From the IMG/VR virus record IMGVR_UViG_3300045988_024106: DNA of 44,656 nt, one strand, 5' to 3'. Position numbers and translations under genes: made by a program. The notes beneath the pieces are model-generated. The model was not told where the DNA came from. It saw only the letters and a list, made by a program, of their open reading frames with translations, and did no database searches. Positions within the stretch are counted from its first letter, which is position 1, and every line of letters starts with the position of its first letter. Source of the stretch: a virus. Taxonomy: Duplodnaviria; Heunggongvirae; Uroviricota; Caudoviricetes. This document shows positions 3,664-33,711 of the stretch, in pieces.

Positions 3664-3666
3664 AAA

Positions 3667-3846
3667 TTATTCCTCTGACTTACGGCGACGACGCTTAGTA
3701 CCGCCGCCGTTGTTGTGCGCTTCTTCGCTGTCCGGTTGGGTTGCAACCAGCTCGTCCGCTTCTACAACACCGCGAACTGGTATCACCTGACCGTCAACAA
3801 TATCAACGTGGGTGTACTTTTCGCGGATTACGTAATTATCTGCCAT
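3667..3846 (-). CDS. Small protein with basic C-terminal tail (59 aa)
   Basis: ATG at 3844-3846 preceded by AAGGAAAGG; ends ...GGGTKRRRRKSEE; not in the ORF track (<60 aa). Confidence 0.35.
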   Translation of the reverse strand: MADNYVIREKYTHVDIVDGQVIPVRGVVEADELVATQPDSEEAHNNGGGTKRRRRKSEE

Positions 3847-3882
3847 GACCTTTCCTTATTACGGCCCCGAAGGGCCGTTGCA

Positions 3883-4233
3883 TTAAGACACAGTTGCTAC
3901 AGTGCTGCCGGAGATAATATTACCATACACATCCTGCACGACCACTTTATACGTACCAGAATCGGTGGTAGCGAGCGAAGTTTTCTCGTAGGTGGCGGCG
4001 TTAGCACCAGGGATAGCGTTGTTATCTTTGTACCACTGGTATGTGTACGGGGCCAGACCGCCAGTTACGGCTACGGTAAGAGTCATCGTCTTCCCCGTAG
4101 ACCCGGTAGTGGTAGCGGCAAGTGCGGTAGAAAAAGATGCGGGCGAGATATTCGCCATATCGATTTCAACCTGACCATCGGCAGGAGAATCATTAGAAAC
4201 ACCAGTAATACGACGTTTAATTACATCAACCAT
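3883..4233 (-). CDS. Ig-like domain protein (putative capsid decoration/accessory)
   Basis: 116 aa; C-terminal YTYQWYKDNNAI...GTYKVVVQD resembles a bacterial Ig-like domain; downstream of the capsid gene. Confidence 0.5.
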   Translation of the reverse strand: MVDVIKRRITGVSNDSPADGQVEIDMANISPASFSTALAATTTGSTGKTMTLTVAVTGGLAPYTYQWYKDNNAIPGANAATYEKTSLATTDSGTYKVVVQDVYGNIISGSTVATVS

Positions 4234-4245
4234 TTTTAAGCTCCT

Positions 4246-4533
4246 TTAGCCTACAGTTCCTGCGTTTTTAAGCGCAGTCAACAGGTCTGCTACGGTAGTG
4301 TGCAGCGCGGTAACATCAGTTAGAAGTTTGTCGTGCTCCGCTACAAGCGCATCGAACTCCGCCTTAGTCGGGTCCGCCACGGCCTGAACCCCAGCGGCGG
4401 CGGGTGCAGCTACAGTAGCTGACTTTTTAACCCCACCAACTACGCTGGTAGTAGCGGGCGTGACTGGGATATCCAGGTCGCCGAAGTCGACATTCTGAAG
4501 GCCGCGCGGCAAGCCTTTTCCGGTCTTAGCCAT
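4246..4533 (-). CDS. Small structural protein, function unknown
   Basis: 95-aa ORF with RBS AAGAGG, immediately downstream of the major capsid gene and its hairpin. Confidence 0.45.
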   Translation of the reverse strand: MAKTGKGLPRGLQNVDFGDLDIPVTPATTSVVGGVKKSATVAAPAAAGVQAVADPTKAEFDALVAEHDKLLTDVTALHTTVADLLTALKNAGTVG

Positions 4534-17270: not shown

Positions 17271-17474
17271 TTATTTCTCCTGTTTACCAAGTCGCTTAGG
17301 TGAGCAGATAGCGCGTACCTCTGAATCATTGGGCTTGTCGCCCTGGAACAAGAAGTGCGCGTTTTCTGCGGCGCGTGCCGCTGACTGACACGCCTCCATC
17401 GAATAAAACGTTTCTGATGCCGCCAGGTGCATCTGGCCTGCGGACAATACCCAGATAAATAAGATGCTGGTCAT
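17271..17474 (-). CDS. Small secreted/membrane protein
   Basis: 67 aa from ATG at 17472-17474; N-terminal hydrophobic signal-like segment MTSILFIWVLSAGQMHLAA. Confidence 0.4.
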   Translation of the reverse strand: MTSILFIWVLSAGQMHLAASETFYSMEACQSAARAAENAHFLFQGDKPNDSEVRAICSPKRLGKQEK

Positions 17475-17840
17475 TTTATTTTCCCGCATTTATAGCACTG
17501 CTGTAAGTCGCTACACCACGTAACCAAACGATAGTCGTGCTCGCACTCCTCAGCTTTGGTCGCGCCGCAATTAATACATCCGGGTAAAGGTTTGCTCGGG
17601 GTAGGGTCTCCGGAAATGCCACCACCCTTACGTATAAGTTTATACGCCTCCGCATCACCCGTAGCTGTAGCCAATGCCAGATGCAACTCCTTAATCTGTT
17701 TTGACGCATCACGTAACTGATTCTTAAGTGACTGCACCTCATGCGCCAGGTCTTCGCACTGTTGCTTGTACGGTGGGTTACTTACCTGCTGCCGTAGCTG
17801 GTCAATCAGGTACTCGAATACTTCGTTTTTTGCTACTCAT
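17471..17840 (-). CDS. Hypothetical Cys-rich protein interrupted by a +1 frameshift in an A6 tract
   Basis: ATG at 17838-17840 with RBS GGAGA; frame stops after 12 codons, but the +1 frame continues from the A6 run (17826-17831) into ORF 17471..17737 (C-terminal CINCG...CYKCG). Confidence 0.4.
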
Positions 17841-20395: not shown

Positions 20396-20442
20396 TACCT
20401 GTAGCATCTTTTGTATCTTAGTAACTTTGTGTGTTGTTTCGG

Positions 20443-20471
20443 TTGCTTTTACATTCCCGCTATCCTATACT
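20443..20471 (+). promoter_or_regulatory. Sigma70-like rightward early promoter (TTGCTT-17-TATACT)
   Basis: -35 at 20443-20448, -10 at 20466-20471; ~30 nt upstream of the first plus-strand gene. Confidence 0.4.
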
Positions 20472-20502
20472 TGGCTTCACCGAACAAACAGGAGATATAG
20501 AA

Positions 20503-20685
20503 ATGCAACATTACATGACACAGAATGAAGTAGCTGAACGTATCGGGGTGACACGGCAGACAATTAATAACTGGTTGCGCAGTGGTAAATTCCCGGATTG
20601 TTGTATTAAGGTTATGGGTAGACGTTTACCGGGAACATTTGACCGTAATAAAGTTGAAGCGTGGATTAAGGAGAACGTGAAATGA
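20503..20685 (+). CDS. AlpA/excisionase-family HTH DNA-binding protein
   Basis: 60 aa from ATG at 20503 (RBS AGGAG); MTQNEVAERIGVTRQTINNWLRSGKFP is a typical HTH_17/AlpA-like helix-turn-helix. Confidence 0.6.
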   Translation: MQHYMTQNEVAERIGVTRQTINNWLRSGKFPDCCIKVMGRRLPGTFDRNKVEAWIKENVK

Positions 20686-20962: not shown

Positions 20963-21091
20963 ATGACAAAGTTAATAGTTCCACAGCTACGCCGCCAGAA
21001 ACACGGCGCTGACTTCTTCGCACCGGTAAAGATGAACCGCGCAATGCGCCGTATGCAGGAAGCCTTAGAACGTGCGGAGAAAAAGAAATGA
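20963..21091 (+). CDS. Hypothetical small basic protein (42 aa)
   Basis: Manual translation MTKLIVPQLRRQKHGADFFAP...; RBS AAGGA; stop overlaps the primase-helicase start. Confidence 0.3.
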   Translation: MTKLIVPQLRRQKHGADFFAPVKMNRAMRRMQEALERAEKKK

Positions 21092-23349
21092 ATATTGTTT
21101 TTGCAGCGCTGCGAAACACATTCGATAAAAACCCGGTAGCGCGTGAAATGCCGCTGGAGCAGTTCGTAGAGTATGTCTGTGATACGTCGAAGCGTTTATC
21201 TGTAGACCCGTCGTGGACTAAGGAAGAGTACGACGCAGCCAAGATTAAGCAGAAGGCTATCGCACCTGTTGGTGGTCGCCGTAAAAACGCGATTCTGGAA
21301 GACAGTGTGGTTAAGTTCGACTTTGACCATCTCAACCGTACTCAGTACCGCGACCTGACACGCAAATTCAAGAACGCGCCGTTCTTCAATATTCTGCACA
21401 CGACGGCGTCGCACCAGCACGCGTGTAAAAACGGTGACTACGCTTTCCGCGTTCTCGTACCGGCCCGCACGCCGTTTAACTCTAACGACGCGTGGATGGT
21501 GCAACGTGCTATTTGTGCTGAGTTAGAAATAGACGAAGCATTGCGCGACCACTGCACAGAAGATGGCAACCGCCTTATCTACCTGCCGCATAAAGAGTCA
21601 AAGATAACGGTTACAGAAGGGCGTGTTATCCGTGCCGAGCGGTACATCAAGAAAGCCGAAGAGATGGGGCTGCGTAAACGTGAAGCTAAGACGCTTGCTG
21701 CCGATGAGCACGGGCTTAACGCAGATATAGCTCATTTCTGCGAAGCCGAGCTGGGCCTTGACGCTTTATCTTCCGGCCGAGGGTATGAAGTGCCATGCCC
21801 TAATGAACATCTGCATACTGGCAAAGGCTCTACCAGCATCATGCTCGATGGTAAAGAAGTGCGCTTTGTATGCCAGCATACGAACAACGGCGCTTGTACC
21901 GAGCTTAACCGTCGGCAACATTTGGCCTTGCGTATGTGCGGCCTGCCCGACGAGCTTAACGTAGACAAGCAACCTATCAGTATTAACAGCATTCGTGCGG
22001 CTTTGCCTGACTTACCTGACGAAGAGATTGAAGAACTGCACCGCACAGAGAACGAGGAGCCTGTAACTTGTACGCTGGAAGACCTCGAAGACGAGCCGGA
22101 AGTAGAAAAAGAACCTGCTTACTCCGTCGTAGATGGTCTTATGCAGACTAACGAATCATTCTACATTTGCGCAAAGTCCCACACCGGTAAGTCGACATTT
22201 AGTATGGCGATTGACGCCGCCATCACCGCCGAAAAAAGATATGCGTTCGGTGGCGCTGAGGTCGCAGAAGGTCATGCATTTATCTTCGCAGGCGAAGGTG
22301 CACAGTCGTTCGAGAGACATAAAAAATCTTTGCAGATTGCACTTGGCGATAGCCTCGACCGCTTACACATTATCGATTGTGTTGCTGAGGGGTGTAACTT
22401 ACTTGACGAAGCGTGGCGACGTAAGGCGGTGAGAATGATGCGCCGTGTTGCCGGTGAAGAGAGAATTGTAAAGGTTACGTTTGATACCCTGCAAACCTGT
22501 ATACCTGGCTTCGACGAAAACGACAACAGGTCAATGAAAGAAGCGGCGCAGGCGCTTAACGAAATAGCGTCTACGCTTAACGCCGCGGTAGGTGCTATGG
22601 TGCACCCGACTAAAAACATCGATGAAACTGTACCATCCGAGAACGGCATGATGCCGAAGGGCGGTAGTGATTTTCACAACTCCATCGATAACGGGATGTT
22701 CCTGCATAAACCAGACAACGACAATAACTTAGAGATAAACCTGTATCACATAAAGAACCGAAACGGAGAACGGCAGAAAGCCAGAGGATTCGTAATACAG
22801 AAGATTCAGATAGCGGAGCCACCGGAAAAGAAAGAACCAACTCACAACTTCATGGGACTCCCGGAAGGGTACAGTAGTGACGATGTACGAGATTTTGACG
22901 CAGGAAATCCGCACATCGATGTCTTTGTTAACTTTAACGCCTTCTCTGTCTTCGTGAAGAAAGTAGAAGGTATGACCGACGAACAGAAGGAAGCCGTTAA
23001 AGAAAAAGTAGGCCAGTTCGAGAAACTGGACACCAAAGAGGCTACGGTTATTTACGCATTAGGTAAATTGCAGGAGCAGGGCGACGACAAGCGAGGGTTT
23101 TCTATGTCCGCTATCGTCAAAGCGGCGAAAGAAGATAGTTACGGCGTACCGATTAACGCTAATAACGACCTTCGAAAAAAACTGGAAGAGATGCACGAGG
23201 CGGGGGTTATCGTCTCGGGTCTGGATAACAACAACAGACCTATCCCTAAGCAATACAGGTTGCCGTGGGGCATAAACGACAACAAGATTCCTAAGACAAT
23301 ATACGAACAGAATGAAATGCTTACAGTGACCGAGGAAGATTTGGAATAG
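21088..23349 (+). CDS. DNA primase/helicase (N-terminal primase-like and zinc-binding region, C-terminal P-loop RecA-like ATPase)
   Basis: 753 aa; Cys/His cluster CPNEHLH...CQHTNNGAC; Walker A AKSHTGKST in the C-terminal half; first large gene of the replication block. Confidence 0.6.
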   Translation: MNIVFAALRNTFDKNPVAREMPLEQFVEYVCDTSKRLSVDPSWTKEEYDAAKIKQKAIAPVGGRRKNAILEDSVVKFDFDHLNRTQYRDLTRKFKNAPFFNILHTTASHQHACKNGDYAFRVLVPARTPFNSNDAWMVQRAICAELEIDEALRDHCTEDGNRLIYLPHKESKITVTEGRVIRAERYIKKAEEMGLRKREAKTLAADEHGLNADIAHFCEAELGLDALSSGRGYEVPCPNEHLHTGKGSTSIMLDGKEVRFVCQHTNNGACTELNRRQHLALRMCGLPDELNVDKQPISINSIRAALPDLPDEEIEELHRTENEEPVTCTLEDLEDEPEVEKEPAYSVVDGLMQTNESFYICAKSHTGKSTFSMAIDAAITAEKRYAFGGAEVAEGHAFIFAGEGAQSFERHKKSLQIALGDSLDRLHIIDCVAEGCNLLDEAWRRKAVRMMRRVAGEERIVKVTFDTLQTCIPGFDENDNRSMKEAAQALNEIASTLNAAVGAMVHPTKNIDETVPSENGMMPKGGSDFHNSIDNGMFLHKPDNDNNLEINLYHIKNRNGERQKARGFVIQKIQIAEPPEKKEPTHNFMGLPEGYSSDDVRDFDAGNPHIDVFVNFNAFSVFVKKVEGMTDEQKEAVKEKVGQFEKLDTKEATVIYALGKLQEQGDDKRGFSMSAIVKAAKEDSYGVPINANNDLRKKLEEMHEAGVIVSGLDNNNRPIPKQYRLPWGINDNKIPKTIYEQNEMLTVTEEDLE

Positions 23350-23359
23350 GTAAAAAGAA

Positions 23360-23376
23360 AGGGGCGTTAAGCCCCT
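23360..23376. terminator. Hairpin terminator overlapping the XRE gene stop (aggggc-gttaa-gcccct)
   Basis: GC hairpin between convergent primase-helicase (+) and XRE (-) genes; T-rich tail on the minus strand. Confidence 0.5.
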
Positions 23377-23582
23377 TCACCGAACGCCAGCCACTTGGCG
23401 TCTACTTCCAGCACTTCTGCCAGTTTAAACAGCGTCGCCGGGCGGACATCCTGAGTTACACCGAGTGCCAGTTGGTTAATCGCGCCCTGGGAAACCCCAG
23501 CCAGAACAGCCAGACGGCGCTGGGAGATGCCGAGTTCTTTACGGCGTTGTTCTACACGGATGCCTAGTTCAGATGGTTGCAT
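23367..23582 (-). CDS. XRE-family (Cro/CI-type) HTH transcriptional regulator
   Basis: 71 aa; ...RRKELGISQRRLAVLAGVSQGAINQLALG is a canonical HTH_3 motif; sole minus-strand gene in the plus block; RBS AAGGAG. Confidence 0.75.
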   Translation of the reverse strand: MQPSELGIRVEQRRKELGISQRRLAVLAGVSQGAINQLALGVTQDVRPATLFKLAEVLEVDAKWLAFGEGA

Positions 23583-23610
23583 GTCAATTACTCCTTAGTC
23601 AGTTGATATG

Positions 23611-23677
23611 TGAATAGTACCATATTAATTATTTTAGGAAAGCCCATTGACATCATGAATAGTTAGCTATTATAGTT
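23611..23677. promoter_or_regulatory. Divergent control region with two operator palindromes and a TTGACA -35
   Basis: tgaatagtaccatatta (23611-23627) and tgaatagttagctattatagtt (23656-23677); TTGACA at 23647-23652; lies between the XRE gene and gene 23709. Confidence 0.55.
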
Positions 23678-23708
23678 AGCACATACCAAACGAGAGGAGA
23701 GAAACAAA

Positions 23709-23885
23709 ATGGCTAAACGTAAAGATTATGATGCTAACTGGAAAGTGTGGTTTCCCAACGTCATCCTAGAAGGACGTGGGGATGTTGAAGGTATGATTAC
23801 TCAGGCATTCCGTTTCTTACCCGAAAACATGCAGAAAGACATTCTTAAAGAACTTAACAATATCGCCGAACAGGAGAACAAATAA
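23709..23885 (+). CDS. Hypothetical protein (58 aa)
   Basis: Manual translation MAKRKDYDANWKVWFPNVILEGRGDV...; RBS GAGAGGAGAG; stop overlaps the next ATG. Confidence 0.4.
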   Translation: MAKRKDYDANWKVWFPNVILEGRGDVEGMITQAFRFLPENMQKDILKELNNIAEQENK

Positions 23886-24412
23886 TGTTAGAGAAATTCT
23901 TAGTATTACTGGAACGTTTCGTAGTTGCGCATGAACTGATTGCTGCGAACAGTGTGAAACAACCGACTAATAAATCTGTAGGTGAATTGACTGTTGACGT
24001 CGCGGTAACGGGGGTAGAGACAGTTAAAAAAGAACTGGCTAAAGCACTTGAAGAAGTCGAGAAGGCGAAAGAAATCCCGGTTGAAGGTGAAGACGTCGTT
24101 GACACTAAACCGGCAGAAGATGAGAAGCCGAAACGCAAGCCTGGCAAATCAAAACCAGCCCCTAAACCTGTAGAGGAACCAACACCGGAGCCGGAAGAAG
24201 AAGTCGATTACCAGTCTCTGCGTGACCAGATTCAGGCTATCGACGATGCGATTAACGAAGGTCCGAGCGATGCCGCGTGCGACGATTCCGATGAACTACT
24301 GGAAGAGTTCACCGGTAAGAAAATGAAGATTGCCGCGATTAAAGACGAAGACCTGGCTGAATATCTGGAACGCCTCACGGCAATCAAGAACAAGTATTTC
24401 GAAGAAGAATAA
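23885..24412 (+). CDS. Acidic early protein (possible DNA mimic), function unknown
   Basis: 175 aa, roughly a quarter Asp+Glu with Pro/Glu/Lys-rich linker (EEPTPEPEEEVDY...); early position. Confidence 0.4.
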   Translation: MLEKFLVLLERFVVAHELIAANSVKQPTNKSVGELTVDVAVTGVETVKKELAKALEEVEKAKEIPVEGEDVVDTKPAEDEKPKRKPGKSKPAPKPVEEPTPEPEEEVDYQSLRDQIQAIDDAINEGPSDAACDDSDELLEEFTGKKMKIAAIKDEDLAEYLERLTAIKNKYFEEE

Positions 24413-24425
24413 CTACTTAACTTAT

Positions 24426-24449
24426 GGTGCCCTCGCTATTGAGGGCACC
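24426..24449. other. Stable hairpin (9-bp stem ggtgccctc / gagggcacc) without a U-tract
   Basis: Perfect inverted repeat 14 nt after the stop of CDS 23885..24412; not a canonical terminator. Confidence 0.4.
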
Positions 24450-24467
24450 AAACTGAGGGTCAGAATT

Positions 24468-24740
24468 ATGATTTACCAACTCTACCGAGCCGTAGACAGG
24501 CGGGATAGCACAGAGGCGTTATGGCTGTTGCGCGCGCCGTCCGGTGCGCACCAGATGGAAGAGATGGCGTACTTAGGCAAAGTACCACGGCCTAAAGATA
24601 TAGGCCGTCACGTGTCGCAGATTAAGCGCACGACTTTCGCCAAGCCTGACTTTTATGTCTTCGAGTCGATGTATGGGTGGGCTATGCACTGCGAACATAA
24701 GACCCGGCATTTAATTGACCAGTGGGAGAACAGGGTATGA
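24468..24740 (+). CDS. Hypothetical protein
   Basis: 90 aa from ATG at 24468 (MIYQLYRAVDRRD...); the track ORF begins upstream at 24330. Confidence 0.4.
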   Translation: MIYQLYRAVDRRDSTEALWLLRAPSGAHQMEEMAYLGKVPRPKDIGRHVSQIKRTTFAKPDFYVFESMYGWAMHCEHKTRHLIDQWENRV

Positions 24741-25234
24741 ATTGGCATGAAGTTTTTGACTACGACCCCGCTACAGGTAAATTATTTTGGAAAATAAGTC
24801 CGTCAAAATCTGTAAAAATAGGGCAAGAAGCTGGCAGTACGAGGGCGGACAACGACGGGAGTGAATTTAAAATACTACGTTTTAACGGGACTACTAAACT
24901 TATCCACCACGTAGTTTGGGAGATGTTTAACGGGCCGATAGCGCCTGGGGAAGTAATTCGTCATAAAAATAAAGATAGAACTGATAACAGAATAGAAAAT
25001 CTTATAAAAATGCGTCGGGGCAGTATCGCACACGGCACCAGCATACGGACGGACAATACTTCAGGGGTTAAAGGTGTTGGGTTTCATAAACGCTATGGTA
25101 AGTGGGTCGCAAGAATTTATGTAGACGGCAGGCCGATTTATTTAGGGGCTTACGATAAGTTAGAGAACGCGGCTAAGGCTCGCAGGCAAGCCGAGATTAA
25201 ATACGGGTTTACAGTTAACGGAGCTGAGAAATGA
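24737..25234 (+). CDS. HNH homing endonuclease with AP2-type DNA-binding domain
   Basis: 165 aa from ATG at 24737 (RBS GGAGA); HNH signature ...IRHKNKDRTDNRIENL... and AP2-like GVKGVGFHKRYGKWVARIYVDGRPIYLGAYDKLENAAKARRQAE. Confidence 0.7.
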   Translation: MNWHEVFDYDPATGKLFWKISPSKSVKIGQEAGSTRADNDGSEFKILRFNGTTKLIHHVVWEMFNGPIAPGEVIRHKNKDRTDNRIENLIKMRRGSIAHGTSIRTDNTSGVKGVGFHKRYGKWVARIYVDGRPIYLGAYDKLENAAKARRQAEIKYGFTVNGAEK

Positions 25235-26481
25235 TTCTAAAAGAACGCGGCGGCAATAATGACGTACACGCCTTACTGTCGCCGTCAGGTGCTAAAAAGT
25301 GGCTAAGCTGCGCCGCGTCACTGGCCTGTGAAAAAGATATTCCTAACACGTCAGGTAAAGCCGCGGTATTAGGCACAGCTATGCATACAATAGCCGAGGT
25401 CCATTTAAATCAGTACATCAAAGGCACTGCGCTGCCGTTAGAACGTGAAGTTGGCGCTTACGTGCTGGATGGGGGTAAAGGTCAGATTAAGGCGCTAATC
25501 AGCCCGATTAAAGGCGCGGTACTGATTACGGCGGATATGATTGAGCAGGTGCGTAAGTACACCGACTACTGCAAACCGATTATCGATGTAGCGACTTACG
25601 CCAAGCTCGAGATGCGCGTCAATCTTACTGAGGTATTGCATCCTGGCTACGAAGGTGTCGAGACGTTCGGAACTGCTGACCTTGTTGCCGTACAGGAACT
25701 GGCAAACACTGACGAGCACATGTTAATTATCGGCGACCTGAAAACTGGGCGGCATCGTATCGAAGCGAAAGAAAACAAGCAGCTTATGCTCTATGCTCTC
25801 GGTGTTTATCGCCGACTCAAGAGACGTTATAACATCGCAGTTGTTCGTCTGGTCATCTTCCAGCCGTACGCTGGCGGGGCGTCGGAGTGGGACATCTCGG
25901 TTGAAGGTCTGGAACTGTTCGCTAAGTTCGCACAGAAACGTGCACTGTTGGCTCTTGATGCCTATTTCCGCGGTAAGAAGAACCTGAAAGCGTCGGACTT
26001 CAAGCCGTCTGTCGATGGTTGTCAGTGGTGCCGGTTCTCTGAACAGTGTGCTGCGCGTACAAAAACCGTTAACGCGGTACTGGTGGAAGAGCTGGAGGAC
26101 GACTTTGCACTGGAACTGACGCCGGAGCAACTCGTAACTGAGTATGAGAAGCTGCCGTTGTTGCGCCAGCACATAGACAAGGTTGAGAAAGCGATGGCCG
26201 CCGCATTGCATTCAGGTAAGAAAGTGCCAGGGTACAAGCTGGTTGAAGGCCGTCCTGGTAATCGTGCGTGGAAAGACTCCGATGCGATTGAAGTGTCACA
26301 CGGCGACATTCTCAAAAAAGAGGTATTGATGTCGCCTACGGAGGCAGCAAAAGTTCTTTCGGCGGACGAGATGGCAGCGCTTGAGCCGTTTATCACGCGT
26401 AAGCCGGGCGCACCATGTGTCGCATCGGCAGACGACAAGCGTCCTGAGTGGAATCAGGTAACAGAGGAGGATTTAGAATGA
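25231..26481 (+). CDS. DUF2800-family PD-(D/E)XK exonuclease (Cas4/RecB-like, Fe-S cluster)
   Basis: 416 aa; N-terminal ALLSPSGAKKWLSCAAS and C-terminal Cys cluster DGCQWCRFSEQCAAR; lies upstream of DUF2815 and PolA. Confidence 0.65.
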   Translation: MILKERGGNNDVHALLSPSGAKKWLSCAASLACEKDIPNTSGKAAVLGTAMHTIAEVHLNQYIKGTALPLEREVGAYVLDGGKGQIKALISPIKGAVLITADMIEQVRKYTDYCKPIIDVATYAKLEMRVNLTEVLHPGYEGVETFGTADLVAVQELANTDEHMLIIGDLKTGRHRIEAKENKQLMLYALGVYRRLKRRYNIAVVRLVIFQPYAGGASEWDISVEGLELFAKFAQKRALLALDAYFRGKKNLKASDFKPSVDGCQWCRFSEQCAARTKTVNAVLVEELEDDFALELTPEQLVTEYEKLPLLRQHIDKVEKAMAAALHSGKKVPGYKLVEGRPGNRAWKDSDAIEVSHGDILKKEVLMSPTEAAKVLSADEMAALEPFITRKPGAPCVASADDKRPEWNQVTEEDLE

Positions 26482-26714
26482 TTCGTAAAATGTTCAGAGT
26501 AATTGGCGGTTTTGTGGCGTTTTTAAGCTATCACTTTATGATGTTGCCGGTTTATTCTTTGCTTTTTCCATTAATGGCTTATATTGCGGTTAAGTATAAA
26601 ACTGTAGACCTGGAAGACTTAATGGAAGTTAATGAGATAAAGTTTGTTCAGAATTTGGAGTGGCCTTTCGAATACGTACTGATAGTTGAGAAAATAACTG
26701 GCTGGAAGGGTTGA
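26478..26714 (+). CDS. Small membrane protein
   Basis: 78 aa from ATG at 26478 (RBS AGGAGG); hydrophobic segments FVAFLSYHFMMLPVYSLLFPLMAYIAV. Confidence 0.4.
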   Translation: MIRKMFRVIGGFVAFLSYHFMMLPVYSLLFPLMAYIAVKYKTVDLEDLMEVNEIKFVQNLEWPFEYVLIVEKITGWKG

Positions 26715-26739
26715 CACCTGAATAGTTAGCTATTATAGT
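26710..26739 (+). promoter_or_regulatory. Promoter with operator palindrome (TTGACA + tgaatagttagctattatagtt)
   Basis: TTGACA at 26710-26715; the 22-nt block 26718-26739 is identical to 23656-23677; followed by a short hairpin (26751-26766) and the DUF2815 gene. Confidence 0.55.
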
Positions 26740-26793
26740 TCTAATCACTGGCCGGGCAGCTTCCCGGAGTAAACTTAAAAGCGAGAAATCACG

Positions 26794-27420
26794 ATGGGAC
26801 TGAAATTAAATCTGCGTAAAGTAAACACTGCATGGGTTAACGTATTCGAACGCGAAAAAGACCGTGAAAACGATGATGGCTCAATCACTAAAGGCCAGTA
26901 CAGCGCGACTATCATCCTGCCGTCCGACCATGCTCAAATCGACGCGCTATACGACACTGTTTACGCTGTAGTTGAAGAAGCGTTAGGTGCAGCCGCCGCT
27001 GAGAAATGGATGAAGTCCAACTACGGCGAAGGCAAGCACATGGATAAATGCGCGATTAAAGACATTGCCGAGCGCGACAATCCGTTTGAAGACTTCCCAG
27101 AAGGCTTCTACTTCAAAGCGAAGGCACAGAAACAGCCGCTGATTGTAACCTCTAAAAAAGGTGAGACTCAGGTAGAGCAGGACTTCAACGTAGACGGCGA
27201 ACAGATTGAAGGCGAACAGGTTTACAGCGGCTGCGTCGCTAACGTAAGCGTTGAAATCTGGTTCAGCCAGAAATATAAAGTCCTCGGCGTTAACCTGCTG
27301 GCGATTAAATACGTTGGTGAAGGTAAAGCGTTCGGTGGTTCTAAAGTAGTCGCAAGCGTCAATGACCTGGAAGACGACGAAGAAGATGGAGCACCACGCC
27401 GTGAACGCCGCCGTCGCTAA
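26794..27420 (+). CDS. DUF2815-family protein (putative ssDNA-binding replication factor)
   Basis: 208 aa; conserved position between the DUF2800 exonuclease and PolA; basic C-terminus APRRERRRR. Confidence 0.55.
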   Translation: MGLKLNLRKVNTAWVNVFEREKDRENDDGSITKGQYSATIILPSDHAQIDALYDTVYAVVEEALGAAAAEKWMKSNYGEGKHMDKCAIKDIAERDNPFEDFPEGFYFKAKAQKQPLIVTSKKGETQVEQDFNVDGEQIEGEQVYSGCVANVSVEIWFSQKYKVLGVNLLAIKYVGEGKAFGGSKVVASVNDLEDDEEDGAPRRERRRR

Positions 27421-27439
27421 TATCTGAATCAATTTAACT

Positions 27440-27462
27440 AAGGCCCTTCATTGGGCCTTTTT
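27440..27462 (+). terminator. Rho-independent terminator/attenuator before the DNA polymerase gene
   Basis: aaggccc-ttcatt-gggcctt hairpin followed by TTTTT. Confidence 0.6.
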
Positions 27463-27479
27463 ACTAAGGGTCGAAAATA

Positions 27480-29681
27480 ATGAGTTACCTGTTCTTAGAC
27501 TTTGAAACATTCTCCGAAGCCGATTTAAAGAAAGTCGGCTCCTACGCTTACGCCGAACACCCAACTACTGAAGTGCTTATCTGCACGTATGCTTTTGACG
27601 ACGAGCCTGTTCGGGTATGGGATTGCACCGACGGCAGCGACATGCCTGGCGATTTGCACCGCGCGTTACGCCGTCTGGTTAAACCGAACAGCCGCATCAA
27701 GATGGTGTGGCACAACGGCTCAATGTTCGACCGCCTCATCATGAAACACTGCTGGGGTTTTGATATTCCGGTAAGCAACACCATTGATACGATGATTTGG
27801 GCGTTCCGCCACGCGCTGCCGGGTTCACTTGATGCATTGTGCGAAGTGCTGGGTGTATCCGCGGACAATGCAAAAGATAAACGCGGCAAGGCGCTGATTC
27901 AGCGTTTTTCTAAACCGACGCCGAAGAACTACAAAATCCGTCGCTACACCGCCGAAACACACCCGGGCGAGTGGGCGCTGTTCATCAAGTACGCCGTGAG
28001 CGACATCACTGCGATGCGTGAAGTCTCCCATAAGCTGCCGAGGTGGGGTAACTCCGAGTTTGAGGACCGTGTACTGGAACTGGACCAGTTAATTAACGAC
28101 CGCGGGTTTAAGGTTGACGTCGCACTGGCGGAAGCCGCGATTGAGGCCGTGGAGAAACACAAGGCACAGTTACAGGAAGAAGCCCAACGCAAATACGGCG
28201 GCTCGCTTACTGGTAAAGACTTCCTGCCAATTCTACGCGAACTGGCTCCTGCGCACCGTATTCATAACGCACAGAAGTCTACGCTTAACGACCTGCTGGC
28301 GGACGATGATTTACCTGACGACGCCCGCGCGATTATAGAAATGCGCCTCGGGGCCGCATCCACCGCATCAACGAAATATAACCCGCTGTTGTTAGGCCGC
28401 TCTTCGGACGACCGCCGTCGAGGGTGTTTACAGTATGGCGGGGCAAAACGTACTCTGCGATGGGCGGGTAAAGGCTTCCAGCCGCAGAACCTGGCGCGCG
28501 GGTACTATCACGATGATGAACTGGATAAAGGCATTTCAGCGTTACTTAAGGGCCGCGCGCACCGCCGTTTTGATGTCGCTAAATTAACGGCATCGACGGT
28601 GCGTAGCTGCATCATACCGGAAGCAGGACATAAGTTTGTTGTTGCCGATTATTCTAACGTCGAAGGTCGCGGTTTAGCGTGGCTGGCCGGTGAAGAAACC
28701 GCGCTCGATACGTTCCGCGCTGGCCTTGATATTTACTGCGTAACCGCGGGTAAGATGTTCGGCATGGACCCAGATGATATTAAGAAAAACTTCAAGGAAA
28801 TCAGACAGATAGGCAAGGCTTGCGAACTGGGCCTCGGCTATGAGGGGGGTGTCGGAGCGTTCGTTACGTTCGCTAAAAACTTAGGTCTTGACCTTATTGA
28901 GATGGCAAAAACAATGGACGGGACTTTCCCCGACCACATCTGGGCTGCTACCGCACGAGGGTATGAGTGGGCGCGTATTCAGGAAGCCAAGCGACCGCCA
29001 CATCCCGGTGAAAAGGATGACCGACCATCGTATATTCTTGATAAGAAAGTGTGGCGCACATGTGACGCTATCAAGCGTATGTGGCGTGAGTCTCACCCTG
29101 AAACAGTAGCGTTCTGGCGAGACCTTAAAGATGGAATTTTAGCCGCTGTTCGCAATCCTGGTCGTGAATTTTGGGCAGGAGCACACTTGCGCAAGAATGG
29201 TGAAAGGGCTATCCGCATATGGCGTACTGTTGAATTTGATTCGTCCGGTAGGAAGGTTCCTGGTTGGTGGTTGTGTATGGAGTTGCCGTCGGGTCGTATC
29301 CTCTCGTATCCGGGGATCGGCGTTAGCGTGACAAAGGAAACAGACGAAGACGGACGGGTAAACACGAATGTGCGAATCAAGTACCAAGGCGAAAACCAGT
29401 TAACCCGCCAATGGACTACCCTGTACACACACGGTGGCAAAGCCTGCGAAAACATTGTCCAGGCGCTGTGCCGTGATTTACTCGCGTATGCGATGATTAA
29501 TGTTGAGGGTGGCGGGTATCCAATCGTGCTTTCGGTACACGATGAACTGGTATGTGAAACTCCAGACACCCCCGAGTATACGGTGGCTGAACTGGAAAAA
29601 TTAATGTGTTCGCTGCCTGAGTGGGCCGAGGGGTTCCCTCTTGTAGCGGAAGGTCAGGAGTTAAAACGTTATGCTAAGTAA
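27480..29681 (+). CDS. Family A DNA polymerase (PolA-like with 3'-5' exonuclease domain)
   Basis: 733 aa; N-terminal exonuclease motif LFLDFETFS, large polymerase domain; downstream of DUF2800/DUF2815. Confidence 0.75.
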   Translation: MSYLFLDFETFSEADLKKVGSYAYAEHPTTEVLICTYAFDDEPVRVWDCTDGSDMPGDLHRALRRLVKPNSRIKMVWHNGSMFDRLIMKHCWGFDIPVSNTIDTMIWAFRHALPGSLDALCEVLGVSADNAKDKRGKALIQRFSKPTPKNYKIRRYTAETHPGEWALFIKYAVSDITAMREVSHKLPRWGNSEFEDRVLELDQLINDRGFKVDVALAEAAIEAVEKHKAQLQEEAQRKYGGSLTGKDFLPILRELAPAHRIHNAQKSTLNDLLADDDLPDDARAIIEMRLGAASTASTKYNPLLLGRSSDDRRRGCLQYGGAKRTLRWAGKGFQPQNLARGYYHDDELDKGISALLKGRAHRRFDVAKLTASTVRSCIIPEAGHKFVVADYSNVEGRGLAWLAGEETALDTFRAGLDIYCVTAGKMFGMDPDDIKKNFKEIRQIGKACELGLGYEGGVGAFVTFAKNLGLDLIEMAKTMDGTFPDHIWAATARGYEWARIQEAKRPPHPGEKDDRPSYILDKKVWRTCDAIKRMWRESHPETVAFWRDLKDGILAAVRNPGREFWAGAHLRKNGERAIRIWRTVEFDSSGRKVPGWWLCMELPSGRILSYPGIGVSVTKETDEDGRVNTNVRIKYQGENQLTRQWTTLYTHGGKACENIVQALCRDLLAYAMINVEGGGYPIVLSVHDELVCETPDTPEYTVAELEKLMCSLPEWAEGFPLVAEGQELKRYAK

Positions 29682-29802
29682 ACTGATTATCGCGGTACTG
29701 GCAGGATTTGCCGCCGGTGTCTACTGTCACGAGGGTCAATACGGCATGATTGTCGCCGTGTTAGGCATGTTCATCGCAATTTATCTGTGGGTGCTGGAAT
29801 GA
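29671..29802 (+). CDS. Small hydrophobic peptide (43 aa)
   Basis: Manual translation MLSKLIIAVLAGFAAGVYCHEGQYGMIVAVLGMFIAIYLWVLE; overlaps the PolA stop. Confidence 0.3.
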   Translation: MLSKLIIAVLAGFAAGVYCHEGQYGMIVAVLGMFIAIYLWVLE

Positions 29803-29888
29803 AAATCTACTGGTTCTACGAAGAAGACTGTCGAATCTGTCCGCGCTGCGGGGTTGAGCATACAAAACGAGAGGGGTGCGTATTATGA
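29799..29888 (+). CDS. Small CxxC zinc-ribbon-like peptide (29 aa)
   Basis: Manual translation MKIYWFYEEDCRICPRCGVEHTKREGCVL; ATGA overlaps at both ends. Confidence 0.3.
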   Translation: MKIYWFYEEDCRICPRCGVEHTKREGCVL

Positions 29889-30076
29889 AAGAAGAATGTT
29901 TTAGCAACACCAAAGCGTTAGTAGATATGCCGGAGTGGGAATTTATCATGGTAATGGGCGATGGGTTCTTTAGCGATGCTTGCACCGGGTGTACGCACAA
30001 AGGTGTTTACTATTCAGAACACGACATCTATCAAGCGTACTTCCTGCGAAACCCAGATGCGGAGCCGTTGTTATGA
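29885..30076 (+). CDS. Hypothetical protein
   Basis: 63 aa from ATG at 29885 (MKEECFSNTK...). Confidence 0.4.
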   Translation: MKEECFSNTKALVDMPEWEFIMVMGDGFFSDACTGCTHKGVYYSEHDIYQAYFLRNPDAEPLL

Positions 30077-30225
30077 CAATGTTTGTATTTTGGACGATAG
30101 TAACCATGCTCGCACTGTTACTCGGCGCTGGAATAGCTGCGATGTTCTGTTATGGCCTGTTCTTTAAGTTTGTCGGTGTTGCCGTTCTCGGTGGAGCTTT
30201 CCTTACTTGGATTCTGCGGTCGTGA
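30073..30225 (+). CDS. Small membrane protein (50 aa)
   Basis: MTMFVFWTIVTMLALLLGAGIAAMFCYGLFFKFVGVAVLGGAFLTWILRS; two hydrophobic helices. Confidence 0.35.
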   Translation: MTMFVFWTIVTMLALLLGAGIAAMFCYGLFFKFVGVAVLGGAFLTWILRS

Positions 30226-30506
30226 CTAAAGAGGGCCGCGTACAGAAATACGCAAAAGAGAGGTTCGAGGCCCTGGGCGGCCTCGTTCGTAAACTTTCCT
30301 ATGAGGGGCGCTCCGGCGCTCCCGACCTGCTGGTAATTCTCCCCGGGGGCATCGTCTGGTTCGTCGAGGTTAAGAAAGATGAAAACACGAAGCCGGACCC
30401 CCACCAGTTACGCGAGCACGAGCGGATGCGTAAACGCGGTGCGAATGTTTTTGTCGTCGGTTCGTACAAACAGGTTGACGACCTAATAGCGAACTATTAT
30501 AGTTAG
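30207..30506 (+). CDS. VRR-NUC domain nuclease
   Basis: 99 aa; GAPDLLVILPGGIVWFVEVKK carries the PD-(D/E)XK-like D...E.K core typical of VRR-NUC; start uncertain (TTG at 30207 or GTG at 30222). Confidence 0.6.
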   Translation: MDSAVVTKEGRVQKYAKERFEALGGLVRKLSYEGRSGAPDLLVILPGGIVWFVEVKKDENTKPDPHQLREHERMRKRGANVFVVGSYKQVDDLIANYYS

Positions 30507-30536
30507 TCCCACACCAACAATATAAGGAATTGAGAA

Positions 30537-30728
30537 ATGAAACACGAATATGACCGCAAACCAGCACGCGGCATCGTACCAGGCGACATGATTTTCAACG
30601 TTAAGACCCGCCAGCCTGTTGCCGTTGATACGGTGTTCGTCGAGTCGAATGGTAAACTGGTTATCGAAGATGCGACCGGTAACGTTACGGCGTTCGGGCG
30701 TAAAGAGCTGGTGCTGGTGGCGAAATGA
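30537..30728 (+). CDS. Hypothetical protein
   Basis: 63-aa ORF with RBS AAGGA. Confidence 0.4.
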   Translation: MKHEYDRKPARGIVPGDMIFNVKTRQPVAVDTVFVESNGKLVIEDATGNVTAFGRKELVLVAK

Positions 30729-31648
30729 ACTATTACAATGAGTGGGATAAAGGCGCAGCCGCGTGGCTGCGTGAATTAATAAAACAGGGTCACATACCTT
30801 TTGGAGTTGTAGATGAAAGAAGCATTACAGAAGTTAAGCCAGAAGACCTCGACGGGTTCACCCAGTGTCATTTTTTCGCTGGTATTGGCGGCTGGCCTCT
30901 CGCGCTCAGACTTGCGGGAGTTTCGGAAAATACGCCTCTCTGGACGGGAAGCCCGCCTTGCCAACCGTTTAGCGCGGCAGGAAAGCAACTCGGACATTTC
31001 GACCCGAGACACCTCGCGCCGGTATTCCTTGACCTCATCAGCGAGTGCCGCCCTCCAGTCCTCTTTGGGGAACAGGTTGCACCAGCAATTGCAAAATCGT
31101 GGATGTGCGATTTACAAACTCACCTGGAAGGAGAAGACTACGCCGTCGGGTTTGCCGTACTCCCAGCTTGTGGCGTCGGCGCACCGCATAAAAGAGAGCG
31201 ACTCTTCTTTGGTGCGTACCAACTGGCCGACACCGACAGCGAACGATTACAAAGGGAGCGGAGAGACAGTGATTCGCAAGGACGGGAAGGACAGAACATT
31301 CGACAGGCTGGACTACTCAACGGAGCAGGGACTGAAAGCGGCATGGGGGACGCCGACGGTTCAGAATTCGCGTCACGGCAGCTACAGCGAGGCGGAAACA
31401 AAAAGAGACCCGAACAATCTGCACAATCAATGCTACCTCGTGGTGGCAATCCGAATCGCAGCTTCTGGTCGGATGCTGACTGGCTCGGATGCCGTGACGG
31501 AAAATTTAGGCCAGTTGAACCCGGCACATTCCCGCTGGCTAATGGGATACCCGCCAGAGTGGGACGATTGCGCGGTTACGGCAATGCTATCGTCCCGCAA
31601 GTAGCTGCAGAATTTATAAAGGCGTTTATGGGGGCCATAAATGAGTAA
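30725..31648 (+). CDS. DNA (cytosine-5)-methyltransferase with two compensating frameshifts (+1 near 31219-31220, -1 near 31572-31576)
   Basis: Frame A holds motifs I (FFAGIGG), IV (PPCQPFSAAGK), VI-like (GEQV), VIII (APHKRERLFF) and X (GYGNAIVPQV); the middle segment with NWPTPTANDYKG and LNPAHSRWLMGYPPEW is in the frame of ORF 30813..31604. Confidence 0.6.
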   Translation: MNYYNEWDKGAAAWLRELIKQGHIPFGVVDERSITEVKPEDLDGFTQCHFFAGIGGWPLALRLAGVSENTPLWTGSPPCQPFSAAGKQLGHFDPRHLAPVFLDLISECRPPVLFGEQVAPAIAKSWMCDLQTHLEGEDYAVGFAVLPACGVGAPHKRERLFFGAYQLADTDSERLQRERRDSDSQGREGQNIRQAGLLNGAGTESGMGDADGSEFASRQLQRGGNKKRPEQSAQSMLPRGGNPNRSFWSDADWLGCRDGKFRPVEPGTFPLANGIPARVGRLRGYGNAIVPQVAAEFIKAFMGAINE

Positions 31649-33065
31649 GTTTCAAAGGCGCGAGTACCAGAAGCTCATGACCTCGTTCATGTTGCAACAC
31701 CATCGCTGCAACATATGGGCAAGCATGGGCGCTGGGAAGACTGGCAGCGTACTGTGGGCATTAAACCGACTGTTCCGCAACGGCCAACTTAATGATGACG
31801 ACCGCGTGTTAATACTCGCCCCGCTGCGCGTTGCGTCCGGCACATGGCCCGCAGAACAAGAGAAATGGCGATTCCCGTGTCTGAGTGTCGTAGATGCGAC
31901 CGGTTCAGAGAAGCGCCGTATCGCGGCGCTGGAGTCGGACGCTAACGTGGTATGCACAAACTACGAAGTTATCGAGTGGCTGATTGACTACTACGGCAAA
32001 GATGACTGGCCTTTTACCGTTATCGTTGCCGATGAAAGCACGAAGCTTAAATCATTCCGCAGCCGTTCAGGTGGTAGTAAGAGGGCGAAGGCGCTCAGTA
32101 AGGTGGCATTTGGAAAGGTTAAGCGTTTTATTAACCTGACGGGAACGCCGTCACCGAACGGCCTCAAAGACTTGTGGGGGCAGAACTGGTTTATCGACGC
32201 GGGCGAGCGCCTGGGTTCTTCCTACACGGCATTCACTGACCGCTGGTTTAACTCGGTACAGAAAGGTAAGTCGGCGATGGCGCGTGAATACCATGCACGA
32301 CCAGGTGCTGATAATGAAATCCACCAGAAGATGAAGGACATTAGCCTCACGATTGACGCCGCCGAGTGGTTCGGTTGTGAAGCTCCGATTATCGTACCGG
32401 TTGAAATCGACCTGCCGAAGAAAGCACGTCAGGCGTACATAGATATGGAGGAGAAGTTATTCGCGGAACTGGAGAGTGGGGAAGTTGAAGCGGCTAACGC
32501 AGCAGCGAAGACGTCTAAGTGTTTGCAGATTGCTTCCGGTGCCGTGTATGTGACTGGCGACGACGGAGAAGCAACGAAAGACTGGGAGAAAGTGCACGAT
32601 ACGAAACTGGATGCGCTCGAGTCCATTGTGGGGGAACTACAGGGTGCGCCGTTGCTGGTAGCATATCAGTTTAAGCACGAACTGGAGCGCATCCTTAAGC
32701 GATTCCCCCAAGCACAGGCGTTTGCAAAAGGTGCTAAGGGTAATAAGCAGATGGAAGCATGGAACCGTGGTGAAATCGAAATCTTATGCGTGCACCCCGC
32801 GTCAGCTGGGCATGGTTTGAATTTACAGGACGGCGGACATCATCTGGCGTTCATCTCACAAGGCTGGAACCTTGAGCACTATTTGCAGGTCGTTGAGCGT
32901 ATAGGCCCGGTCCGCCAGAAACAGGCAGGCCACGAGCGCCCGGTGTTCCTTTACCACATCGTTGCTAAGGACACGCTGGACGAGGTTGTTGCCGCGCGTA
33001 CGGACGAGAAAAAATCTGTACAGGAAGAGTTGCTTAATTACATGAAGAGACGAGGTAAGAAATGA
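31641..33065 (+). CDS. SNF2-family (DEAD/DEAH-like) helicase
   Basis: 474 aa; Walker A GAGKTG, DExx box VIVADEST, C-terminal helicase domain. Confidence 0.7.
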   Translation: MSKFQRREYQKLMTSFMLQHHRCNIWASMGAGKTGSVLWALNRLFRNGQLNDDDRVLILAPLRVASGTWPAEQEKWRFPCLSVVDATGSEKRRIAALESDANVVCTNYEVIEWLIDYYGKDDWPFTVIVADESTKLKSFRSRSGGSKRAKALSKVAFGKVKRFINLTGTPSPNGLKDLWGQNWFIDAGERLGSSYTAFTDRWFNSVQKGKSAMAREYHARPGADNEIHQKMKDISLTIDAAEWFGCEAPIIVPVEIDLPKKARQAYIDMEEKLFAELESGEVEAANAAAKTSKCLQIASGAVYVTGDDGEATKDWEKVHDTKLDALESIVGELQGAPLLVAYQFKHELERILKRFPQAQAFAKGAKGNKQMEAWNRGEIEILCVHPASAGHGLNLQDGGHHLAFISQGWNLEHYLQVVERIGPVRQKQAGHERPVFLYHIVAKDTLDEVVAARTDEKKSVQEELLNYMKRRGKK

Positions 33066-33577
33066 TGGATGGCGAGGAGTTGCTACTTAAGGCGCATCTG
33101 CTGTCGCGTGGTTTTGATGCGGACCGATTACGTGTAGTCTTAGGCTCTGGGGTAGCTACGTTTTACCTGTGGGGATTTGATGGTAGGCTTCGCGGATACC
33201 AGCACTACAAACCACATGCGGAAAAGAACTGTAAAAACCCTAAAGACGCGAGGTACTTTACCAGAACAACAAGGCCGTGTTTATGGGGGCTTGAGTATTT
33301 GCCGGAGAGCGGGGTGGTATTTGTTACTGAAAGCGTATTCAAAGCCGTAGCCTTGATGAATTGCGGGTTCAATGCCGTAAGCGCACTTGGGTCAAATATA
33401 CCAACCGACCTACGTCAGCAAATGTCACTTTTGCCGTATGACTGGGTGTGCGCGGGCGACAATGATAAAGCTGGCCTAAAGTTCAGCAAAACATTCACCA
33501 GAGGATTTGTGTCAAACGACCTTGATGAACTTTGTGAAGAAGAAATAACGTATCTTGCGAGGAAATTTACCAGATGA
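33062..33577 (+). CDS. Toprim-domain protein (DnaG-like primase catalytic core)
   Basis: 171 aa; Toprim-like VFVTESVFKAV (conserved Glu) and CAGDNDKAG (DxD). Confidence 0.5.
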   Translation: MMDGEELLLKAHLLSRGFDADRLRVVLGSGVATFYLWGFDGRLRGYQHYKPHAEKNCKNPKDARYFTRTTRPCLWGLEYLPESGVVFVTESVFKAVALMNCGFNAVSALGSNIPTDLRQQMSLLPYDWVCAGDNDKAGLKFSKTFTRGFVSNDLDELCEEEITYLARKFTR

Positions 33578-33711
33578 ACATCACAGCCCCGATTCCGGCA
33601 TTGCAAAAACGTATCAAGGAACTTGAAGAAGAGGTTCTACGACTACGTCAGCAGAGAGATGCCTCTAATGCACAACTGGCGTTTGTACTGGAGAAATTAG
33701 CAGAAGAGTAG
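33574..33711 (+). CDS. Small coiled-coil protein (45 aa)
   Basis: MNITAPIPALQKRIKELEEEVLRLRQQRDASNAQLAFVLEKLAEE; ATGA overlap with the upstream stop; followed by a terminator. Confidence 0.35.
   Translation: MNITAPIPALQKRIKELEEEVLRLRQQRDASNAQLAFVLEKLAEE

Follow-up and report, generated by a model that had tools for sequence, protein, structure and literature searches.

Predicted primases of two superfamilies in an ordinary replication module of a Kagunavirus-like siphophage

What are two primase-type proteins doing in a single phage replication module, and are they parts of one enzyme or enzymes of different kinds? The question is raised by the viral record IMGVR_UViG_3300045988_024106 (Duplodnaviria; Heunggongvirae; Uroviricota; Caudoviricetes), a stretch of 44,656 nucleotides that is called the window throughout, and more precisely by the plus-strand genes at positions 20,963 to 33,711. 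The initial annotation read this block as an unusually complete replication/recombination module holding a large primase-helicase of 753 aa and a separate Toprim protein of 171 aa, and it suggested that the latter reflects either a split primase or a Toprim nuclease. Our structure models indicate that the module encodes two primases of different superfamilies, an archaeo-eukaryotic primase (AEP) in the 753-aa protein and a DnaG/T7-type enzyme in the 171-aa protein.

The module itself is a familiar one. All of the annotated open reading frames (ORFs) are present on the plus strand in the order given, every family label holds at family level in profile scans against Pfam and PHROG (NCBIfam was added for the 753-aa protein, and several Pfam matches lie under the curated cut-off), and the tally of two primase-type proteins, two helicases and three nucleases is borne out. 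The word "unusually" does not survive, because parts of the block match 503 phage records, mostly Salmonella and Escherichia phages of the Guernseyvirinae (13 of them cover at least 80% of it), and because Escherichia phage EcoPhCCP1 (PQ384582) is 96.5% identical at the DNA level with 95% of the 12.7 kb covered. VB_EcoS-Golestan (NC_042084; 89%), RP180 and many other Kagunavirus genomes match at 89-91% identity, and the annotated gene orders of Golestan and EcoPhCCP1 agree with that of the window. The genes for the primase-helicase, the DUF2800 nuclease, the DUF2815 protein that binds single-stranded DNA (the SSB), the family-A polymerase, the VRR-NUC nuclease and the SNF2 helicase are co-linear on one strand (six of six), an order that recurs in Golestan, in EcoPhCCP1 and in an unrelated 40-kb contig. 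From about 20.3 to 33.7 kb the plus strand forms a single rightward gene block whose members overlap or are tightly spaced in the ORF list; GC skew is positive over this block and negative to either side, and no tRNA genes were found in the window. Judged by these comparisons, the block is an ordinary conserved replication/recombination module of a Kagunavirus-like (Guernseyvirinae) virulent siphophage that has already been sequenced; as a replication module it offers nothing new, and near-identical GenBank phages carry the same labels. A PADLOC scan gave generic SNF2 and PD-(D/E)XK matches for the module proteins, from which no membership in a defence system follows.

The larger of the two proteins (21088..23349, +) is assigned to PHROG_3228, "replicative helicase-primase", with an E value of 1.5e-295. 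Pfam sees AAA_25 alone in it (residues 334-510, 1e-16) and gives no match to residues 1-331 even at E<=10; NCBIfam and PDB-sequence searches with the full-length protein return no match over the N-terminal region, and neither does a family profile of the N-terminus searched against PDB sequences. Because none of these searches covers the N-terminus, the "primase" label that the protein bears in databases is an inherited annotation. The fold search alone succeeded: the structure model (pLDDT 85) places an AEP/Prim-Pol fold at residues 1-200, so that the primase domain assumed by the initial annotation is there, visible by structure only. An exhaustive search of 1.8 billion representative proteins, clustered at 50% identity, with this N-terminal domain returned only 14 clusters, in which the 11 full-length relatives measure 715-771 aa. 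A word-index search with the N-terminal fragment gave 2 matches, and the N-termini of the full-length relatives are about 99% identical and uninformative for alignment. In an alignment of 13 sequences that reaches down to 22% identity, D78xD80, D154, R64, T106 and R121 do not vary; D78/D80 are assigned to motif I and D154 to motif III by their position in predicted strands. The stretch HTTASHQH (residues 104-111) is partly conserved, with T106 invariant and no single His invariant. Following the AEP domain, C237, H243, C262, H264 and C270 are conserved within a putative zinc motif (residues ~225-320) that the model folds into small strands and helices; taken alone, this segment gave no match by profile or fold. 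The helicase part (residues 334-580) has a RepA/DnaB-type RecA fold, with RSF1010 RepA as the best PDB profile match (3.4e-7) and weak matches also to the T7 gp4 helicase and Twinkle, and residues ~600-753 make up a C-terminal domain ending in an acidic tail. As modelled, the chain is an AEP primase followed by a zinc motif, an RSF1010 RepA-type helicase and a C-terminal part of ~170 residues. The structure model gives the "helicase-primase" label a basis and presents the protein as a putative phage counterpart of the RSF1010 RepB'/RepA pair.

The same protein is a domain mosaic. Identity to most Kagunavirus relatives is 98-99% in its AEP part and drops to 32% over the helicase plus C-terminal part, before the final ~25 residues (DNKIPKTIYEQNEMLTVTEEDLE) return to near-identity; this pattern points to a recombination event at the acidic linker around residue 335. 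The helicase allele of the window type occurs in 20 phage records. Its association with the Toprim gene (15 of the 20) was set aside, as these records form one clade.

The smaller protein (33062..33577, +) matches Toprim_2 just under the curated cut-off (2.8e-4) and PHROG_849, "DNA primase" (1e-47). It had been described as Toprim-only, which proved too narrow: in addition to the Toprim fold it contains the primase RNA-polymerase domain's N-terminal subdomain, which carries motifs II and III. Its whole length matches the folds of M. tuberculosis and E. coli DnaG, T7 gp4, Twinkle and T4 gp61. In a comparison with predicted viral structures, "DNA primase" proteins of 165-173 aa from Providencia and Proteus phages score highest, and full-length phage primases come next. 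The family profile searched against PDB finds DnaG catalytic cores alone (1EQN, 1DD9, 3B39, 2AU3, 4E2K and 5VAZ; E 3e-3 to 0.1), in an alignment extending from motif III (KYLNSP, placed on K55..P60) past EGxxD to DxD. Profile and fold searches thus keep the ORF with the DnaG-type primases; PADLOC adds a weak DnaG-like match only (DRT model, E 2.5e-4). Among 10 close-to-moderate homologs, E90, D133xD135, D153, H12, R16, W37, G45xQ47xY49, K55 and R64-Y-F-T67 are conserved. In a 27-member alignment H12, R16, G45, Q47, Y49, Y65, T67, E90, D133, D135 and D153 are at least 90% conserved, and a 15-member alignment of the family has the same conserved core. The four acidic metal ligands are conserved, and Lys55 and Lys/Arg50 are largely so. 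The other part of the earlier description, that the protein has neither a zinc finger nor a helicase domain, was correct. A single helix without a Cys/His cluster makes up residues 1-30, Zn_ribbon_DnaG gives no match in a scan in which the 296-aa T5-type primase does match, and neither a helicase-binding domain nor a fused helicase was found, the chain ending ~20 residues past the last Toprim strand. Fold and conserved residues together describe a complete minimal RNA-polymerase domain of the DnaG/T7-gp4 type that, in the predicted structure, is without zinc-binding domain or helicase anchor. The protein would be a clean, naturally occurring case of a DnaG/T7-type catalytic core with both removed.

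Could such a protein be a Toprim nuclease of the RNase M5 or OLD kind after all, or a non-catalytic scaffold comparable to the primase-like domain of metazoan Twinkle? The replacement of the EGxxD Asp by Lys in the subgroup to which this protein belongs would suit either role. However, RNase M5 and a small Toprim protein align over 88 residues, the Toprim half, as against ~160 for the primases, and the N-terminal subdomain (G45xQxY49, Y65xT67 and, in most members, K55) has no counterpart in the nuclease matches. The layout of a Toprim nuclease, with an RNase M5 C-terminal domain or an ABC ATPase partner and without the primase N-subdomain, was not found in the 171-aa protein. Because the protein is a full RNA-polymerase domain and not a bare Toprim domain, the nuclease option offered by the initial annotation is weakened, and the retention of four acidic ligands across very divergent phages argues against a purely structural role. 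We consider both the nuclease and the scaffold improbable.

The other option offered there was a split primase, in which the 171-aa core and a zinc module supplied in trans, either the zinc motif of the 753-aa protein or small Cys-containing peptides, would make up one enzyme. The peptides come from a group of overlapping small ORFs between the polymerase and VRR-NUC genes (29671..30225, +; PHROG_10404 and PHROG_25645, both of unknown function), present as described earlier: a 43-aa hydrophobic product, a 33-aa product with CxxCxxC, a 66-aa product with CxxC and a ~50-aa hydrophobic product, the Cys peptides occupying 29787-30076. Standalone primase-type zinc ribbons do accompany DnaG-like Toprim proteins in some jumbo phages (PMC7824862), and the conserved C/H motif at residues 237-270 of the 753-aa protein offers a second candidate. 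Nevertheless, EcoPhCCP1 lacks the Toprim gene although its 753-aa protein is identical and the same Cys peptides are present, which makes an obligatory split unlikely, and Golestan has the Toprim gene with fewer small ORFs in the interval. Neither a pattern scan of the window nor targeted Pfam scans found a primase-type ribbon of the CHC2/Cys4 kind, and the AEP domain has its own catalytic residues intact. The Cys peptides were rejected as primase partners, their presence not following that of the Toprim gene. The single ribbon-like ORF in a gene-sized frame (17471-17737, -) was rejected likewise, having no Pfam match and no link to Toprim; this 88-aa ORF has a coiled-coil-like N-terminal part and a C-terminal CxxC...CxxC zinc ribbon that is not of the primase type. 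Of the earlier proposal the two primase-type proteins stand, and their union in one enzyme seems very unlikely to us, slightly more so than a nuclease or a scaffold.

The gene for the 171-aa protein behaves as an optional one. The nearest relative replaces it: in EcoPhCCP1 the slot holds an unrelated 61-aa gene (locus L002, 15108-15293). Close copies (at least 80% identity) occur in only 65 phage records, as against the 503 that share part of the module. On these grounds we take the 171-aa gene, as far as sequence comparison goes, to be an accessory gene in this phage group. What occupies the slot after the SNF2 gene and before the terminal 45-aa gene varies; in a 40-kb relative (L092) the slot holds the Toprim gene and then a Dam methylase gene. 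Wherever it is present in this phage group, the 171-aa gene directly follows the SNF2 gene (31641..33065, +; SNF2-rel_dom 1e-12, Helicase_C 2.6e-3, the latter under the cut-off; PHROG_62 9.7e-168) with overlapping stop and start, here as ATGA, and the overlap is kept in a 55%-identical homolog on a different siphophage-like contig of ~40 kb.

We propose the following model. The 753-aa AEP-helicase would serve the phage as its own initiator and as its fork helicase, much as RSF1010 RepB' and RepA do, and the polymerase, SSB, exonuclease, VRR-NUC and SNF2 proteins would couple replication to recombination. The 171-aa enzyme, co-translated with SNF2, would synthesize short RNA primers, with little preference for sequence, where single-stranded DNA (ssDNA) is exposed, either for lagging-strand synthesis or for re-priming at remodelled or recombination-derived forks, and it would render the phage less dependent on host DnaG. 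In phages without the gene, the AEP domain or the host primase would suffice. This overall picture, a standard module with an AEP-helicase engine and a small auxiliary primer-making enzyme, is the one we favour and hold to be probable, though not strongly so, and within it the role of the 171-aa protein is the weakest part.

That role has to be weighed against the distribution of the T5.076-like family to which the 171-aa protein belongs. Homologs were found by tblastn in 488 phage records, and among IMG/VR viral contigs 173 homolog matches were confirmed, of which 80 were kept; a scan of 185,579 bacterial and archaeal genomes with narrow patterns yielded one homolog, on a short contig of a metagenome-assembled genome. 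The members are standalone proteins of 165-200 aa, and the family is, on these searches, phage-restricted; literature searches did not find experimental work on T5.076-like small proteins. In T5-like phages of two genera the homolog lies inside a tRNA gene array (L003, 5986-6504; L089, 3438-3959). In Erwinia jumbo phage Rebecca it lies immediately upstream of RtcB (RtcB E 3.9e-126; L006, 4001-4505), in Vibrio phage F91 it overlaps the end of the gene for a CCA-adding enzyme (PolyA_pol plus HD; L004, 4896-5432), and in Klebsiella jumbo phage FBKp24 it is found between a tRNA array with a GNAT gene (2 kb away) and an SNF2 gene (1 kb away; L088, 3495-3996). A large metagenomic lineage has a GNAT-like protein, AAA_33 kinases, a metallophosphoesterase, a dual-specificity phosphatase and NAMPT with NadR/Nudix as neighbours; the homolog at L091 (4330-4869) adjoins the NAMPT and NadR/Nudix NAD-salvage genes. 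At four metagenomic loci (L054, L058, L068 and L069) tRNA genes lie within 1 kb of the homolog. The 143 neighbours in 24 non-redundant contexts include RNA_ligase, RtcB, PolyA_pol, AAA_33, NAMPT, ribonucleotide reductase (RNR) and DNA ligase, in a census that was taken without a matched background and in which several contexts come from one phage lineage and are not independent.

The jumbo-phage homologs are split in two frames by a +1 shift (Rebecca, L006 ~3986-4505; FBKp24, L088 ~3495-3996). The two phages share the position of the break, which separates the N-terminal subdomain (..WGLE..) from the Toprim strand (..VFLTESVFK..), and the jumbo-phage matches consist of two pieces each among the matches listed. 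This could reflect a programmed frameshift, an enzyme made of two chains or a pseudogene common to these phages.

Several observations weigh against a primer-making role. Outside the Guernseyvirinae the family was never seen in a replisome gene cluster, and no polymerase, primase or replicative helicase is among the 143 neighbours of the 24 contexts. A T5-like genome also has a canonical 296-aa primase (Zn_ribbon_DnaG, DNAG_N and Toprim) beside a DnaB-type helicase and a polymerase, and because this zinc-ribbon primase adjoins their helicase, the small protein is not the replicative primase of the T5-like phages. The Asp of EGxxD is Lys (ESVFK) in the 171-aa protein and in about half of the family, other subgroups having EGVFD. 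T7 requires its zinc-binding domain to synthesize primers directed by a template, and an enzyme lacking that domain, as the 171-aa protein does, may prime poorly or have another activity. For the AEP domain of the 753-aa protein, the motif-II histidine was not placed with confidence.

A possible alternative, to which we give a distinctly smaller but real share of belief, is that the 171-aa protein is an enzyme by which virulent phages work on RNA or counter host defence, for example at damaged tRNA or other RNA ends or by synthesizing small oligonucleotides, and that its location here is a cargo slot. The tRNA clusters around the homologs of T5-like phages and near that of FBKp24, the adjacent RtcB, CCA-adding enzyme and NAMPT with NadR/Nudix genes, the RNA-processing families of the census, the tRNA genes at the metagenomic loci, the full primase already held by T5-like phages and the variable slot in the Kagunavirus group would all fit. 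With the same tentativeness, the T5.076-like family might then be an unrecognised phage accessory enzyme that co-travels with tRNA and NAD-salvage genes, serving tRNA repair or turnover with RtcB, RNA ligase and the CCA-adding enzyme or making small oligonucleotides, and made in jumbo phages through a conserved +1 frameshift or as two polypeptides. On the other hand, the 171-aa protein has the fold and conserved residues of a nucleoside triphosphate-polymerising primase core and not of a Toprim nuclease, the translational coupling to SNF2 is kept down to 55% identity in Guernseyvirinae-like phages, and accessory islands of large phages mix unrelated functions, in addition to the limits of the census given above. 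The non-replisome neighbours are a lead, not proof, and we retain the auxiliary primer-making enzyme as the preferred reading. Either way the family is a tractable target, whether it proves to be a sequence-independent back-up primase or something else.

A second point of interest lies just upstream of the SNF2 gene, where a C5 methyltransferase gene contains a nested ORF. Frame A (30725..31648, +; 307 aa) matches Pfam DNA_methylase (5.1e-16, residues 74-167) and PHROG_363 (2e-86), and motifs I, IV, VI and X can be read in its translation, which carries FAGIGG, PPCQPFS, GEQV and GNAIVPQV. Frame B (30813..31604, +; up to 263 aa) has no Pfam match and belongs to PHROG_1008 (2.6e-52); its conserved part is the last ~132 aa, including WPTPTANDYKG, with tblastn matches in 235 phage records, and the feature under the frame-B match is an annotated cytosine methyltransferase in most of the matches listed. 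The GenBank record of EcoPhCCP1 annotates frame B and that of Golestan frame A, and the same nested pair occurs in the distant Edwardsiella phage PVN06 (L095, 1014-1886 and 1120-1860). The middle of the gene is mosaic among relatives. In M.EcoHK31I the beta chain, which carries motif IX, is encoded within the alpha gene in another frame (PMC2836561). The likeness is one of gene layout, an alpha-like ORF of ~307 aa (motifs I-VIII and X) that encloses another conserved ORF in a different frame, and it makes frame B a candidate beta subunit of an M.EcoHK31I-type two-polypeptide C5 methyltransferase. Such a reading explains the frame choices of the two annotators and predicts a two-subunit enzyme.

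The remaining genes of the block complete the module. At the head of the rightward early genes stands an HTH_17 (excisionase/MerR-like) regulator (20431..20685, +; Pfam HTH_17 4.7e-8), whose counterpart in EcoPhCCP1 and Golestan is annotated "excisionase and transcriptional regulator", followed by a 42-aa ORF (20963..21091, +) that overlaps the start of the primase-helicase gene and is hypothetical in both phages. Beyond the primase-helicase, a Cro/CI-type HTH_3 regulator gene (23367..23582, -; Pfam HTH_3 2.3e-12) with a terminator-like hairpin behind it (23378-23358, -) is oriented leftward inside the rightward module. A sigma-70-like promoter matching the consensus at 11 of 12 positions (23647-23676, +; within 23583-23708) faces the next rightward genes. 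Three near-consensus promoter-like sites, at 23647, 26711 and 30475, lie shortly 5' of gene starts, and those at 26711 and 30475 overlap the end of the preceding ORF; overall, the number of promoter-like sites is not above that in shuffled sequence. The HTH_3 gene and the near-consensus sites suggest sub-operons under a local switch. Next come a conserved 175-aa protein (23885..24412, +; PHROG_3127, unknown function, 4.3e-66; no Pfam match) and an HNH_3 plus AP2 homing-type endonuclease (24722..25234, +; Pfam HNH_3 1.1e-14, AP2 5e-6; PHROG_99 1.3e-51), which lies 5' of the exonuclease gene. The endonuclease gene is kept in EcoPhCCP1, the position in Golestan holds a different 115-aa gene, and it is probably a mobile homing endonuclease insertion.

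The DUF2800 exonuclease (25231..26481, +) is of the PD-(D/E)XK, Cas4-like type (DUF2800 1.4e-66, PDDEXK_1 5.3e-9; PHROG_69 "exonuclease" 7e-120). The DUF2815 protein (26794..27420, +; Enc34_ssDNA-bd 4.8e-15; PHROG_112 2.1e-40) is an SSB of the Enc34 ORF6/T7 gp2.5 type, and for the DUF2815/Enc34 gp2.5-like family ssDNA binding has been demonstrated experimentally (PMC5686142). The family-A DNA polymerase (27480..29681, +; DNA_pol_A 5.1e-18; PHROG_17 1.2e-138) includes a 3'-5' proofreading exonuclease region (DNA_pol_A_exo1 1e-3, under the Pfam cut-off); motifs A, B and C read by eye as DYSNVEGR, RQIGKACELGLGYEGG and SVHDELV, and the first exonuclease motif as DFETFS. The VRR-NUC nuclease (30207..30506, +; Pfam VRR_NUC 1e-3, under the curated cut-off; PHROG_93 9.7e-34, PHROG_5702 2.4e-20) is annotated as a Holliday-junction resolvase in relatives. 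The last gene of the rightward block encodes a 45-aa coiled-coil peptide (33574..33711, +; PHROG_5915 9e-26) and is kept with or without the 171-aa gene. Its label in the Golestan RefSeq record, "exonuclease subunit SbcD", is unsupported by Pfam, which gives weak coiled-coil matches only, and looks spurious.

How, then, does the locus compare with known systems? The window shares its component list with the Kagunavirus/Jerseyvirus modules of EcoPhCCP1 and Golestan and with the Enc34/Chi-type module, for which a primase, a DUF2815 SSB, PolA, VRR-NUC and a helicase have been listed (PMC5686142). Its differences from EcoPhCCP1 and Golestan are at cassette level only, namely the 171-aa gene, the HNH insertion, the number of small ORFs and the target-recognition region of the methyltransferase. 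For the primase-helicase, a described precedent exists among mobile-element primases in the PrimPol-PV1 supergroup, where an AEP domain is joined to a PriCT/zinc domain, a RepA/DnaB helicase and a winged helix (Kazlauskas et al. 2018, PMC5862659); the present family is tiny, and its AEP domain is too divergent for Pfam. In RSF1010 the RepB' primase and RepA helicase are two proteins, whereas the 753-aa protein appears to fuse both activities in one chain. The 171-aa protein is 15-21% identical to the T7 gp4 primase fragment and the DnaG RNA-polymerase domain and differs from them in lacking a zinc-binding and a helicase or helicase-binding domain and in the change of the EGxxD Asp to Lys. Its family is that of T5.076, the "DNA primase-like protein" of T5-like phages, and of small proteins of Privateer-, PSTCR5- and jumbo-type phages. 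The copy in DT57C is of equal length, 48% identical and has the same conserved residues, and what differs is the setting, a tRNA cluster in the T5-like phages and the end of the replication block, after SNF2, in the window.

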